A DNA stretch of 64,000 nt. It comes from Amoebophrya sp. A120. Its lineage: Eukaryota > Protista > Dinoflagellata. Numbering within the stretch: position 1 is the first letter of the stretch; every line of letters starts with the position of its first letter. Positions 9,674-52,163 of the stretch are shown one piece after another. The notes beneath the pieces are model-generated. The model had not been told where the DNA came from, did not search any database, and worked only from the letters and a program-made list of their open reading frames with translations. The DNA lies in contig CAJINV010000011.1 in NCBI GenBank assembly GCA_905178155.1, positions 227,029-291,028 of the forward strand. The letters run 5' to 3'. The translations under genes and the position numbers were made by a program.

Positions 9674-12600
9674 TCACGTTCCAGAAGATTTGCACATATT
9701 TCTGCGATGAAAGACGAAAAGCGCAATAAGATAGAGCACGACAAGACCAGAGAACGACATTTGTGTGTTTTGTTCGAGCGCAACCAGAAGAAGTGTATGG
9801 TGCTGCACCGCTGCGCTCTTTCCTGCATTCGCTCCCGCAGGGATGGCGAGAATACCAGCTCTGGACTTTGATTCCTGCATTGCAGCTGCCCTAGACGATG
9901 AAGCAGGAGCGAAGCTGCGCTGGTCCATCCGGTCTGCCGTTTCCCTCGGAACCGGGTCTACCGCCGTAGAGTGCACAGAGGTGATTTCCGTCGAAAATGG
10001 ATCCATTAAAGGGTACGCGATGTCGATTGTTCGTCGCCTTCGGCTTCGCTTCCCTACTGCACGGACATCACGACCCTCCTGCAGTGCTGTTCCTGGTTGC
10101 ACCAAAGGCGATGCGGCGGCCACGATAGCTGCAACATTCTGCTCTGCTTCTGTGCCGGTCGTCGTGGTACTGCTTGTTCTGCCGGTGATCATCCTTGTTC
10201 CGTCTGTGATGCCAGTATTTGTACTCCTACTACCCCGCACAGCCAGTTCGAAACTCGATCTCTTCAGGTGGGACGAAAACCGTGGGTCGAGGTCGACGAT
10301 CTGCAGGGTATTTGCAATGCCAACATCGAGGAAGCACTTGGGTACGTACAACTGCCGCTGCGGGCCCTGTTCCGCAAAGTATCGCCCCAGAACGCGGCCG
10401 TTCACCAGCGCCACGCCACGGGAAAGCGGAGAAACGTCCAGCCAGAAGCCACCTCGGATAGTACTAGAAGAGGTTGCCTGTAGTTGTTCTGGCTCATCCA
10501 AAGCTCGGTAATCGAACTGAGCCTCGAAGACGAGCGGAAACGACGCGAACTTCTCACCAGTTGGCACTTGCAATTTTTCCGCCCTCTCCATCGCCTCACG
10601 GTCGTGCACGACCGTCACCGCTGCTTCTGCTGCTACTCGTCCTTGTGTCTCTAACACGTTTTTACATAGGTACCACTGACCGGAGGGAGGCTGCGCCAAT
10701 TTGACTTTCCTACCCGTGTACCGGTCCAATTTGTACCAGGCAACGCGAAACCCCTTGCGGTCCCGCGCGACCTCCCGGGACCAGTTGACGCGCCCAAGAC
10801 TCTCGAAGAGAAGAAGCGTTGACGTTTGGGTTGGGGTTCTTCCCGTCCTCGACGTAGAGTCAGTAAATCCACCTGTTTCCATTCGTAGCCAATGCTCCTT
10901 GCCGGCCTGGGTTCCCGCCAAATCCGGCGACACAGCGAGGTTCGGTCGCTGCAGCACGACTACGCGGTTATTTGCTGCTGGACCGCTCTCCCCCTGTAAT
11001 CTTTCTGCCCCGGGGGTATCTTCGTCACCAAATTTACGGCCCGCTTCTGCACCTGCTGACGCCGATTTAATATGTTCGTCTCGACTGGTACCATCGGCAC
11101 TGACCGCGCCTCCCAATACGTACAAGCGATCTTTCAGATCGGTGATGCGCAAGAAAATTTCCTCTTGCGTAGACAGTGCCTCGGACTGGTCGTGCCGCGG
11201 AAATAGATCTTGTGGAGCCGCAGCAGACTCTGACTCTCCGCCGTGCCTGAACTCGAACATCAGTAGTTGGTCAAAGGAATCTATCTCCACTCGCTGCGAG
11301 GATGAGGTAGGCTTTGCGCTGGACGATGCCGGAGAAATGGAAATAATGTCATCGAGAAAATTAGGCTCTTTGATCGCGACGCAACTGTTGTAGTTGCTGT
11401 TGCTGTCGCTTCCGCTAGCTGCACTTTTCCGGCCTTGTGTCGCCCGCTCGAACAGCGTGAGCAGACTACCACGATTTCGGAAATTGAGTTTGATTAGCTG
11501 GGAAGATGTCTTTACATCGGTATGATTTTCACGCAGCTCCGGTGTTGAAGAAGCTCTACCGCCTGCTACTCTTCCTCCTGCTGTCGCCGCCGTCGTCCCC
11601 TCTGGCAACAACCCCGTCGCGTGCTCCCGGGAACGAATCTCCTTTTGGAGTAGCCGGTATTTCTCGCTAATCGCAGCACCGTCTTCCGAGATCGGCGCGT
11701 CGTAATCGTAGCTCACGGGCTGTGGCCGAAAGGTTCCGCCGAGAACGTTCGCGCCATTCGTGAAGCCGAAGTCCGTCCCGCCGTGCACGACGTAGAGTGC
11801 AAAATTGGGGCACTGTTTTACAGTTGCGATTAACTGCTCTGCCTTGCGCGAGGCCATGGTCCGGTCGCCCACGTGCGTCAGCCACCCGGTGTACTATCCT
11901 GTGCAAAAGTATCGTACTCGTACAATACGTCAAACTCAAATGCAATTCTTGCATTACAAGTATTTTTCTTAATGTAAATCAGCATGACAAATTTCATTTC
12001 TCATGCGGAGAAAATTTGTAATGCATTTATACGAGTACGATACTTTTGCAGTTCATATGTACAGCGCGCCAACAAAAGGGGGAGAGAACCCCGCGGGACT
12101 GTTCACCGCTCGCATCTTCGCGAACGCCGCCTTCGCGTCCTCGCCCGGGCCGAAGTCTGCCACTTTGTACACATTTGGTAAACCGCCTTTCACAAGGTCT
12201 CCGGGTGGATCCACCGTAAAGAATTCCACGAAAGGAGGGGACATGGTCATCTTGGTCACACCGGAGATTACCGCCTCAAGTAGCTGCTGTACGCGGTTAT
12301 CCTTTCCTGCTTCTACTTCGGTTATATCGCCGAGCTCCAGAAATGCCCCTAAACTTCTCCGCACTGCCGAGTGGTCGACGTCGGCGGGTGAATCAGAACT
12401 ACTAGCCTTTGCTACGTCCACCTCCTCCTGCAGCTCGATCTGCATCTGCATCCAGAGAAATTGCAGATATTTCTGCGGTGCGGAGCCACTCACACTGGCG
12501 TCCGCCCAGGTACCGTACTCGTCCTCTAGCTGAATCAAGATAATGCTACCGCCGAGTCCCCGCGTGTAGAGTTCGTCTCGGAGCGGGGGAAGCAGCCGGT

Positions 12601-51200: not shown

Positions 51201-52163
51201 CGTGACTGGCATGTACGATTTTACTTTTGCACAGGATAATATTGTACTCGAGACCGCGACATGATTTTGGTCGTCATCTCCCTCTCGTGGCTCCTCCTTC
51301 ACACGCACATGCGAGTAGGTACTCGCCGCTGCTGATCCTCCAATCGCCGTGCGACTGGTTGTGTGCTGCGCTTGTGGTGCCTGCTGTTCCTCTTCCTCGC
51401 TGGCCGGAAGCTCTTGTTTCACCCGCGGCTGCTGTAGTTCCTGCTTGATTCTGACGATCGGATGAGTTGTACCACGGTTTCTTTCCATCTCCTCCTGATC
51501 TTCGCTGTGGTTCACGCCATGATGAGCCAGTTCTTGCTCTTCACCGACAAGACCGTTTTTATCTGCCGCGGTGTCTCCTGGCTGTTCCTCATCTTCGCCG
51601 GACTGCAAAAACAGGTCCTCGCCGTCGTCAAGGTCGAAAATGAAATCCCCGAGGAGGAAGTCCTCCTCGCCCTCCTCTCCACCGACCACCTCCGCAAACG
51701 GGTCGTGCTTGATTCTCACCAGCTCTGGTGCTTCCTCGGTCTGCGGCTGTTGCTGATGTTGTACTTCGGGTGGTTCTTGTAATGTTGCATTTATTTCTTG
51801 GTTCTCCACCACGAGGGTATTTGTCGCAGTTCTTTCTCGACGGTGCGAGTCAGTGGTTGTAGAGGACGGACCTCCCGATAATTGCTCGCTTTTTACCTTG
51901 GCTTGTTGTAAGAGAGGTTCTTGTTCAGCAGCATTCGTTCCTGCTCCCATCTCCGGTGCGCCCGGCATATCAATAGCTGCGAACCGCGACGGCACGGCAT
52001 GACGCGGCTGATGTCTGTGTCCTGTCCCGCTGGCCACTCCCGGCTGCCCGGTAGTTCGAGGATTTGTTGGTTGCTTGGACGACGTTGCACGCCCGGGCGA
52101 ATCTGAGCTGTCGCTCAGGATTACAACGACCGCGTCGTCGTCGGCTTTCTTTCCTGTCTGCAT
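42287..52163 (-). CDS. RecQ-family ATP-dependent DNA helicase, at least 9 exons
   Basis: [105 protein letters not shown] zinc [18 protein letters not shown]. Six TIR inserts, one GT-AG intron (47151-47361) and a probable one ending at ~45193 (donor uncertain). Confidence 0.92.
44132..44379. mobile_element. Non-canonical TIR intron (family A) in RecQ
   Basis: IR TGTAAA..TGTCTGGGTCTGGAA; perfect direct repeat GTGGC; removal gives [13 protein letters not shown]. Confidence 0.92.
44506..44828. mobile_element. Non-canonical TIR intron (family C-like) in RecQ motif V
   Basis: Ends TATCCTCAGCAAAA and TATCTTCCTGAGCAAA; perfect direct repeat CGATG; removal gives VAT|IAFGMG. Confidence 0.92.
45406..46511. 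mobile_element. Non-canonical TIR intron (family A) in RecQ, carrying a nested insertion
   Basis: IR TAT-N4-TG..AATATGTCTG.GTCTGGA; perfect direct repeat CCCGG; removal gives DTI|RDSLQQ. Confidence 0.88.
45466..46280 (-). pseudogene. Retroposed insert with 15-bp target duplication; frameshifted narna-like RdRp (or RT) core remnant
   Basis: CATGCATATTTTGCA at 45451-65 and 46281-95. Minus-strand motif-like pieces VVDE/LGGKF/R, SVDFxxxx[18 protein letters not shown] and [11 protein letters not shown] occur in order across frameshifts. Confidence 0.55.
46571..46742. mobile_element. Non-canonical TIR intron (family B) in RecQ
   Basis: Ends TATGCATTG(C/G)AAAAG; direct repeat GGTTG/GATTG; removal gives KET|NLTKNN. 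Confidence 0.88.
47660..48028. mobile_element. Non-canonical TIR intron in RecQ
   Basis: IR TATG...G.G.CAG.ACCGAAAT.G..AAAG..GAAAT; direct repeat AAGTG/AAGTC; removal gives LRR(D/H)[10 protein letters not shown]. Confidence 0.88.
49073..51241. mobile_element. Non-canonical TIR intron (diverged family B) in RecQ, expanded by a tandem array
   Basis: Ends TATGCATTCAAAGAGGCATCGTAC and TATTATCCTGTGCAAAAGTAAAATCGTAC; direct repeat TTGGA/TTGTA; removal gives VSS(T/P)TSGARTI. Confidence 0.78.
49139..51105. repeat. Tandem array, ~15 x 131 bp, each unit with a long hairpin
   Basis: ATGGCACAAAG recurs at 49139, 49272, 49403, 49534 ... 50975; central units contain the 26-bp IR ACAGGACGGTATTCTGGGCCCCCCGG. 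Confidence 0.97.

Follow-up and report, generated by a model that had tools for sequence, protein, structure and literature searches.

In 64 kb of DNA from Amoebophrya sp. A120 (the window, the whole stretch analysed), six genes are interrupted by inserts with the ends of a transposon, which bear on how roughly two thirds of the introns of this parasite are removed. The inserts are the A120 introners already published by Farhat et al. 2021 (PMC7789003), in whose text, as far as it is drawn on here, the cut site was left open. The junctions in the window fit one fixed cut, and on balance a modified spliceosome, one indifferent to the terminal GT and AG, probably takes the introns out of the RNA.

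Inserts in six genes and their removal

Nineteen TAT..ATA inserts were counted in six genes of the window (Table 1). Four window genes are 100% identical to deposited Amoebophrya sp. A120 proteins, confirming the host strain, and the host genes gave domain matches to GH35, Exo_endo_phos, RecQ domains, Pyr_redox_2 and ParcG; deposited model P0123 links the exons around 37624 to PACRG. Since all host genes in the window lie on the minus strand, transcript polarity is not separable from chromosome strand. A sequence-only reading of the window had counted at least 15 inserts in six genes (GH35 three, APE one, a hypothetical gene two, oxidoreductase one, PACRG two and RecQ six); this tally was reproduced, the 15 elements having been assigned to it here as it carried no coordinates for single elements. 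Four further elements were obtained from deposited proteins (cores 45080-45331, 34611-35330, 35798-36108 and 38938-39174).

The 5' end is TAT in 18 of the 19 elements, and most of them, though not every one, have an A run. The 5-bp direct repeats that had been read at almost all sites are present, but only eight are perfect, six having one mismatch and five being decayed (four to five mismatches), results indicating that the direct repeat is dispensable. No intron (0/19) combines a GT or GC donor with an AG acceptor, and no same-length slide to GT-AG was found for 16 candidates tested (15 of them among the final 19), in agreement with the sequence-only reading. The same reading had held that deletion restores the frame, and removal in silico gave a stop-free frame at four of four GH35 and eight of eight RecQ junctions and across all junctions of the APE, hypothetical and oxidoreductase genes. 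The removed length is a multiple of three in only 4/19, such that 15 inserts would shift the frame if kept. Thirteen of the 19 are skipped in deposited proteins, one more is supported by a contig edge and five by frame only.

A screen for pairs with the end motif, no more than one mismatch in the repeat and an inverted-repeat score of at least 9 returned 13 in the window, ten of them kept elements, against a mean of 0.12 (maximum 1) in 50 local shuffles. The end-to-end duplex energy of the 19 elements was -17.6 to -50.2 kcal/mol versus -2.1 to -15.3 kcal/mol in a comparison set of 11 GT-AG introns from the window. Genomic repetition was evident from very high summed depth and from 147 contigs of run X1 that branch off exactly at 37624, while several elements have low copy depth. 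The window elements thus have the strain, TAT inverted repeat, direct repeat, non-GT-AG removed ends and genomic repetition of the A120 introners. No Pfam match, transposase-like or other, was found in seven internal frames of the 1.1-kb RecQ element.

Table 1. Positions (in the window), repeats and evidence of removal for the 19 introns. P numbers denote deposited proteins.
Gene and intron	Removed	Strand	Core	5-bp direct repeat	Other features	Evidence
GH35 intron 3	11891..12058	-	11895-12057	GTACA, perfect	-1/+4 register	Frame only
GH35 intron 2	13170..13293	-	13174-13292	CGCGA, perfect	3' triplet ATG	Frame only
GH35 intron 1	13414..13539	-	13418-13538	CTCGC, perfect		Frame only
APE intron	18226..18493	-	18230-18492	Mismatch at position 5		P0121
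Hypothetical gene, intron 2	23200..23375	-	23204-23374	Mismatch at position 4	Fold z -4.18	P0122
Hypothetical gene, intron 1	23441..23613	-	23445-23612	Mismatch at position 2	Cut -3 to 0	P0122
Oxidoreductase intron	30119..30445	-	30123-30444	CTCGC, perfect	High-copy family (X1 depth)	Frame only
PACRG last intron	34607..35331	-	34611-35330	Decayed	G-TAT..ATA-CCCG	P0123
PACRG intron	35794..36109	-	35798-36108	Decayed	T-TAC..ATA-TTCC; cut -2/-1; fold z -4.35	P0123
PACRG intron in GDLPIA/IKH	36471..36630	-	36475-36629	Silent mismatch at position 5	3' triplet ATC	P0123
PACRG-gene intron	37620..37999	-	37624-37998	TTCGA, perfect	39-nt inverted repeat; high-copy	P0123
PACRG-gene intron	38934..39175	-	38938-39174	Decayed	G-TAT..ATA-GCGG; fold z -0.78	P0123
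RecQ intron 7	44128..44380	-	44132-44379	GCCAC, perfect		P0003
RecQ intron in VATI/AFGMG	44502..44829	-	44506-44828	CATCG, perfect		P0003
RecQ intron	45076..45332	-	45080-45331	Decayed	G-TAT..ACA-CCTA	P0003
RecQ 1.1-kb intron	45402..46512	-	45406-46511	CCGGG, perfect		P0003
RecQ intron	46567..46743	-	46571-46742	Silent mismatch at position 4		P0003
RecQ intron in RRD/FQLSSFR	47656..48029	-	47660-48028	Mismatch at position 1		Frame and alignment to P0001, P0002, P0004
RecQ first intron, 2.2 kb	49069..51239	-	49073-51238	Decayed	131-bp tandem array fills interior	Contig edge

The RecQ intron in VATI/AFGMG is flanked by two exons over which the Helicase_C match (12-72 and 75-110) is split, and the ends of the 45076..45332 intron were assigned once its junction was known. 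The last PACRG intron contains a nested element with a 60-bp inverted repeat at 34660-35218. Several candidates were rejected. A canonical RecQ intron at 47651-47979 gave a stop and was replaced by 47656-48029, and two PACRG introns first taken as canonical were replaced by non-canonical ones from P0123. The forecast that 36702-36805 is a decayed element failed, the A120 protein and the A25 ortholog showing a GT-AG intron at 36680-36806; no hairpin is predicted for 36702-36805.

The register of the cut

Four deposited A120 proteins cross 13 non-canonical junctions, and every one of these allows a (-1,+4) register, the only one common to them, in which the intron starts one base before TAT and ends four bases after ATA. 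Seven of the 13 exclude some registers. The mismatch at position 5 of the APE repeat places that cut at -1 or earlier, and the mismatch at position 4 of the 23204 element places its cut at -1 or 0; these two junctions already fix the register. Within the repeat the cut has no freedom to slide, one register fitting all informative junctions. Three junction outcomes were forecast beforehand and all three held, among them the APE junction, where P0121 reads M as forecast. The three PACRG introns not picked in advance (34607, 35794 and 38934) all fit N-TAY..ATA-NNNN. Contig pieces of runs X3 and X4, which come from one sample and are probably RNA (a guess; none of the matching runs listed is on record as RNA), have edges in agreement with the register: X3 pieces begin at 46742 (cut -1 to +1) and terminate at 34606, and X4 pieces terminate at 45075 and at 49069 (cut -2 or -1). 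From the last edge, 51238 is the most likely end of the 49073 element, not 51241 as first read. Support for the register comes from deposited gene models, themselves derived from transcript alignments, and from contig edges rather than from joints in single reads; run X9 (raw RNA) gave 45 partly fitting reads with no exon cover and no evidence on junctions.

The register was the same in both element orientations (the 23200..23375 element is opposite to its relatives), with the direct repeat lost, and with nearby AGs skipped. The 34607-35331 intron skips two AGs and the 38934-39175 intron leaves an in-frame AG 3 nt upstream unused, both after a GT donor; the latter is cut the same despite its weak fold. 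That a GT donor offsets a lost hairpin or repeat was rejected, as it holds for no more than three of the five decayed elements. The only invariant positions are T+2, A+3 and A-7 (19/19). Four deviations were found, all at +4, -6 or -5, of which three break a terminal pair while T+2, A+3 and A-7 are spared; this pattern has a chance of about 0.06, a post hoc figure from few deviations. G occupies +1 in six of the 19 introns and A occupies -2 in five, with a single intron ending in AG. In the part of PMC7789003 consulted, Table S4 has T as the second base in 9/9 of the commonest A120 non-canonical ends (TT in 9/9 for A25) and A at -2 in 7/9, an enrichment not reproduced in the window, and the text puts the repeats of A120 at four bases upstream of the 5' end, which points the same way as the register. 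No paper stating the (-1,+4) register was found among the openly available texts searched, though the Fig. 3 logos and Figures S19-S25 of PMC7789003 may hint at it; Amoebophrya is not mentioned in preprint 10.1101/2020.10.14.339549.

A fixed code of the form exon / N-TAT ... ATA-NNNN / exon accounts for the apparent randomness of the end dinucleotides, which are target-site bases, and for the harmlessness of insertion in either orientation. The register makes the removal mechanism testable, as lariat-versus-circle mapping and minigene tests can be aimed at defined positions, and gives a rule for genome re-annotation. Either outcome would be notable: a spliceosome indifferent to G+1 and AG in the one case, a second splicing enzyme that converged with that of Euglena in the other.

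Modified spliceosome or separate enzyme

The mobile unit appears to extend from TAT to ATA, being present in many copies with a flanking 5-bp duplication that a transposase would have made. For either orientation, the inverted repeats are predicted to bring the two ends together by folding the transcript. Deposited proteins and contig edges show an mRNA in which four bases remain from the upstream copy of the repeat and one from the downstream copy, by which the original sequence is restored. T+2 and A+3 may then serve as the donor, N-TA replacing G-TA, with the hairpin substituting for the U1 step; A-7 would act as branch point, and the 3' cut would be set by distance from A-7 and not by AG.

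We favor this relaxed spliceosome over a separate enzyme that cuts and ligates at the hairpin. T+2, A+3 and A-7 are the bases that a spliceosome would need, A-7 being only a candidate branch, and nine of the 11 canonical donors in the window also have T+2 and A+3. According to the text of PMC7789003 used here, A25 and A120 yielded no U1 snRNA, and 15% of A120 canonical introns have the repeat layout; U1 snRNA was found in a strain with canonical introns (PMC12005148). Fixed short distances from branch to intron end are reported for Yarrowia, Trichomonas and Giardia (PMC2483917), and the non-canonical introns of Fritillaria with terminal inverted repeats (TIR) and target-site duplications (TSD) are removed by the spliceosome (review PMC11282704, in part). 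Against a spliceosome are the missing spliceosomal consensus at the intron ends, the AGs skipped even behind a GT donor, the failure to find by eye a good U2-pairing sequence around A-7, and the placement of donor and putative branch within a single predicted helix, which would need melting. Conservation of the triplets may reflect transposition or pairing and not splicing, and Euglena introns of similar geometry are thought to use other machinery.

The sequence-only reading proposed a dedicated excision system that coexists with the spliceosome, acting either on RNA or on DNA. Its RNA form, set out here along the lines of the proposal for Euglena nonconventional introns, is a tentative but substantial alternative: a nuclease would measure from the base of the terminal hairpin and make a staggered cut with one unpaired base 5' and four 3', and a ligase would join the exons. 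The lack of consensus at +1, -2 and -1, the skipped AGs, the single register in both orientations and strong end pairing in 19/19, with none as strong among the 11 canonical introns, are in its favor, as are the like stagger of the Euglena code N3-CDG..CHG-N5-6 (PMC12501133, in part) and the exit of Euglena introns as circles (review PMC11282704, in part). Its separateness is called into question because the invariant bases suit a spliceosome: the deviations break terminal pairs yet spare T+2, A+3 and A-7. Moreover, only two to three of six terminal pairs are in register in five elements, the 38934-39175 intron folds no better than shuffles, canonical and non-canonical A120 introns have a common repeat layout whereas hybrids are rare in Euglena, and no enzyme has been identified. 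That such a second, spliceosome-independent enzyme with a fixed 1/4 stagger at the transposon hairpin base arose independently of Euglena is conceivable though doubtful; if true, every TAT-ended transposon at any site and in either orientation is a ready-made intron.

The DNA form, precise excision by a domesticated transposase as for ciliate internal eliminated sequences (IES), draws on the transposon anatomy and the 5-bp duplication, and the same template-strand register might in principle come from a symmetric staggered cut in DNA. It is very improbable. Ciliate IES are absent from somatic DNA, whereas contigs of run X1, which behaves as DNA (flat depth of 42-52 on unique sequence), run unbroken through six elements with the inserts present, although contigs drop rare variants; DNA-level excision is therefore unlikely. 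No empty-site or spliced joint was found among the best 15 of 400 joints, which were filled by contigs of high-copy elements, and the five elements with the repeat lost keep the same offset. A lineage with no germline/soma split would lose DNA-excised elements, and no such split is known in the Amoebophrya parasite. The text drawn on from PMC7789003 reports no transposase in A120.

Removal by a U12-like (minor) spliceosome is suggested by several 5' ends of the form NTATCC, which resembles the U12 donor, and by U12 tolerance of varied end dinucleotides. U12 introns have an RTATCCTT donor and a CCTTRAY branch; each motif was matched by 0/19 elements. Transposon-like U12 introns are described in Physarum (review PMC11282704, in part). 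U11, U12, U4atac and U6atac were not found according to the same text of PMC7789003, and this route is highly unlikely. Reverse-transcriptase template-switch artefacts classically have the layout seen here, a hairpin together with a short direct repeat, and all transcript evidence here is cDNA-based. Nevertheless, that the junctions are such artefacts or the genes broken pseudogenes is scarcely credible: the frame shifts that most inserts would cause if kept, conserved motifs restored by removal that align with orthologs, and five junctions with no repeat to switch on all argue against it.

Comparison with known systems

The elements resemble MITEs (miniature inverted-repeat transposable elements, non-autonomous TIR DNA transposons) in TIRs, short target duplication, high copy number and varied flanks. 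In PMC12130899, cited from part of its text, A120 TIR introners have integrase-like frames, whereas no transposase was found in the window (seven frames of one element). The nearest relatives are the A120 and A25 introners of PMC7789003, alike in strain and anatomy. According to the portions used, those of A120 have a TAT start, then some seven variable bases and a run of A, have inverted repeats of 8-20 nt and direct repeats of 3-5 nt, are supported by RNA-seq and have no internal transposase, and number 29,850 repeated introns. The claim that the inserts are reported introners, removed exactly and by a mechanism unresolved in that paper, was accordingly upheld. The Fig. 3 legend describes splice sites as variable relative to the hairpin, with the border unknown, whereas a single register fits the informative junctions of the window, where the direct repeat is not required.

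The introns of Fritillaria borealis (PMC11282704 and PMC13326754, both in part) are likewise transposon-derived with TIR and TSD, non-GT-AG, and removed by an adapted major spliceosome. They keep the preferred ends AG-AC and AG-AT, whereas the window introns are free at +1, -2 and -1. The introns of Euglena (PMC12501133) and of hemistasiid diplonemids (PMC12621601), each again from partial text, are alike in non-GT-AG and paired ends, fixed spacers between cut and triplet with the longer spacer 3', and a likely MITE origin. In Euglena the triplets are CDG and CHG with spacers of 3 and 5-6 and a purine opening the next exon; the window introns do not follow this code, having TAT and ATA with spacers of 1 and 4 and showing no exon preference. 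The lineages are unrelated.

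Census and identity of the elements

Thirteen motif pairs in the window combined an inverted repeat with a 5-bp repeat carrying at most one mismatch, where 50 shuffles averaged 0.12 such pairs; 10 of the 13 were kept in the final set. Scans, gene reading and deposited proteins together gave 19 elements in six minus-strand genes, consistent with the at least 15 inserts in six genes counted in the sequence-only reading. The 5-bp direct repeats said to flank the inserts were perfect at eight of the 19 and carried one mismatch at six, but were gone at five. The predicted duplex energy of end pairing was -17.6 to -50.2 kcal/mol for the elements, whereas the 11 GT-AG introns of the window gave -2.1 to -15.3 kcal/mol, weaker than all 19. 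Removal in silico yielded frames without stops and regained conserved motifs as anticipated, only 4/19 elements being frame-neutral.

An exon of RecQ was 100% identical in a protein search to a protein named Amoebophrya sp. A120, as were the APE, hypothetical-gene and PACRG exons to proteins so named. In A120, Farhat et al. 2021 (PMC7789003) report non-canonical introns that are backed by RNA-seq and have direct repeats of 3-5 nt as well as inverted repeats with TAT at their start; 29,850 of these introns are given there as repeated. Since the strain matches and such introns are described in it, the elements are an already known feature, and their assignment to the inverted-repeat non-canonical introners of Amoebophrya was correct.

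Other sequence features of the window
Positions	Feature	Observation
1-8800	Long minus-strand region (read by eye)	DEAH-helicase-like stretch near 2400-4200; no TAT..ATA elements found by scans
11895-51238	CATGACAAA, either strand	24 occurrences, 14 inside a tested element set (6.2 kb), most others in PACRG and RecQ introns; candidate transposase or protein binding site
34660-35218	Inverted-repeat element (60-nt repeats, 93% complementary)	Ends different; nested in a PACRG non-canonical intron; moderately repeated in X1, a DNA-like sequencing run
36680-36806	Canonical GT-AG intron	Ends also fit N-TAT..ATC-NNNN; no hairpin
46923-52340	Deposited RecQ model P0003 (836 aa)	Begins within helicase domain
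49138-51094	131-bp unit x14.9	Partly palindromic itself; fills first RecQ intron
52992-64000	GC-rich satellite arrays in succession, about 11 kb	Repeat units of 80, 78, 80, 93, 34-122 and 53 bases; may be subtelomeric or centromeric

Removal of three upstream introns gave RecQ a stop-free frame of 1708 aa and, therefore, the annotation of P0003 is likely truncated.

The register of the cut

Repeat copies that differ reveal in the mRNA which copy supplied each base. Two contig edges and a single deposited junction led to the proposal of a cut one base before TAT and four bases after ATA, register (-1,+4), and predictions were written down at that point. As predicted, the APE protein carried M, not I, at its junction and the hypothetical protein L and E at its junctions. 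Assuming uniform choice among six registers, the probability of the three agreements was 0.19 alone and 0.02 with the two contig edges added. A fourth prediction, with 36702-36805 as a non-canonical candidate, failed, the intron there being GT-AG; the fit of the canonical intron's ends to the element pattern could be coincidental or could mark a former introner that has become canonical. The PACRG protein showed three further non-canonical introns, not picked beforehand and without remaining repeat, all reading N-TAY..ATA-NNNN. Only (-1,+4) was common to all 13 junctions crossed by four deposited proteins, six of which exclude nothing within the repeat; the intron at 45076 was fitted after the fact, and the common register holds without it. 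Contig edges at 46742, 45075, 49069 and 34606 also fit; they are boundaries of contig pieces rather than listed joints, and come from a single sample represented by two runs that are probably RNA. Transcript-derived evidence covers 14 of the 19 elements, and the other five are placed by reading frame. The element at 23204 is oriented opposite to its relatives and is still cut at -1 or 0, indicating that reversing an element leaves the register as it is. In Table S4 of PMC7789003 the second base is T in 9/9 of the commonest A120 non-canonical end pairs, as the register predicts.

Route of removal

Depth of X1 was flat on unique sequence, as for DNA, and its contigs passed unbroken through six elements; 147 contigs diverged exactly at the TAT of the element at 37624, which marks the mobile unit. 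No empty site was present among 15 of 400 X1 joints listed, in contigs that drop rare forms. Together with the junctions at elements without a repeat, these observations make excision from DNA unlikely, as well as template-switch artefacts as the source of the junctions; the suggested DNA-level removal by a domesticated transposase was thus not borne out.

Across the 19 elements positions +1 and -1 to -4 were free (G+1 in six, an AG end in one), whereas T+2, A+3 and A-7 were invariant; the triplets deviated four times in total, at +4, -6 and -5. AGs 3, 11 and 18 bases upstream of the 3' cut were skipped after GT donors. U12 motifs were found in 0/19 elements. U6 contacts donor positions +2 and +3, and 9/11 canonical donors in the window share T+2 and A+3. 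The candidate branch A-7 lies within the range of the fixed short branch distances described for Yarrowia, Trichomonas and Giardia (PMC2483917). U1 is reported as not found in the two introner-rich strains (PMC7789003), but as found in a strain with canonical introns (PMC12005148). Based on the shared donor bases, the branch distance and this strain pattern, removal by a modified spliceosome is the favoured reading, held at little better than even confidence; against it count that the three terminal contacts are all lost, that no clear motif for pairing with U2 was seen, that the numbers are small and that Euglena offers a precedent. That precedent speaks for a separate cut-and-ligate enzyme, to which we give a smaller but appreciable probability. 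Of the dedicated excision system proposed beside the spliceosome, it is this RNA route that survives, as the less probable reading.

Comparison with known introns

The Euglena introns, N3-CDG..CHG-N5-6, have a geometry like that of the A120 elements (PMC12501133), and circular products are described for the nonconventional introns of Euglena (review PMC11282704). For A120, the legend of Fig. 3 in PMC7789003 gives splice sites as variable relative to the hairpin, with the border unknown, and that of S23 places repeats 1-5 nt from splice sites. No statement of a fixed register was found in the literature searched, which included the text of PMC7789003, the preprint of Roy et al. 2023 and, for Guminska et al. 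2021, a review. The system is known, and the register added here makes the route of its removal directly testable.
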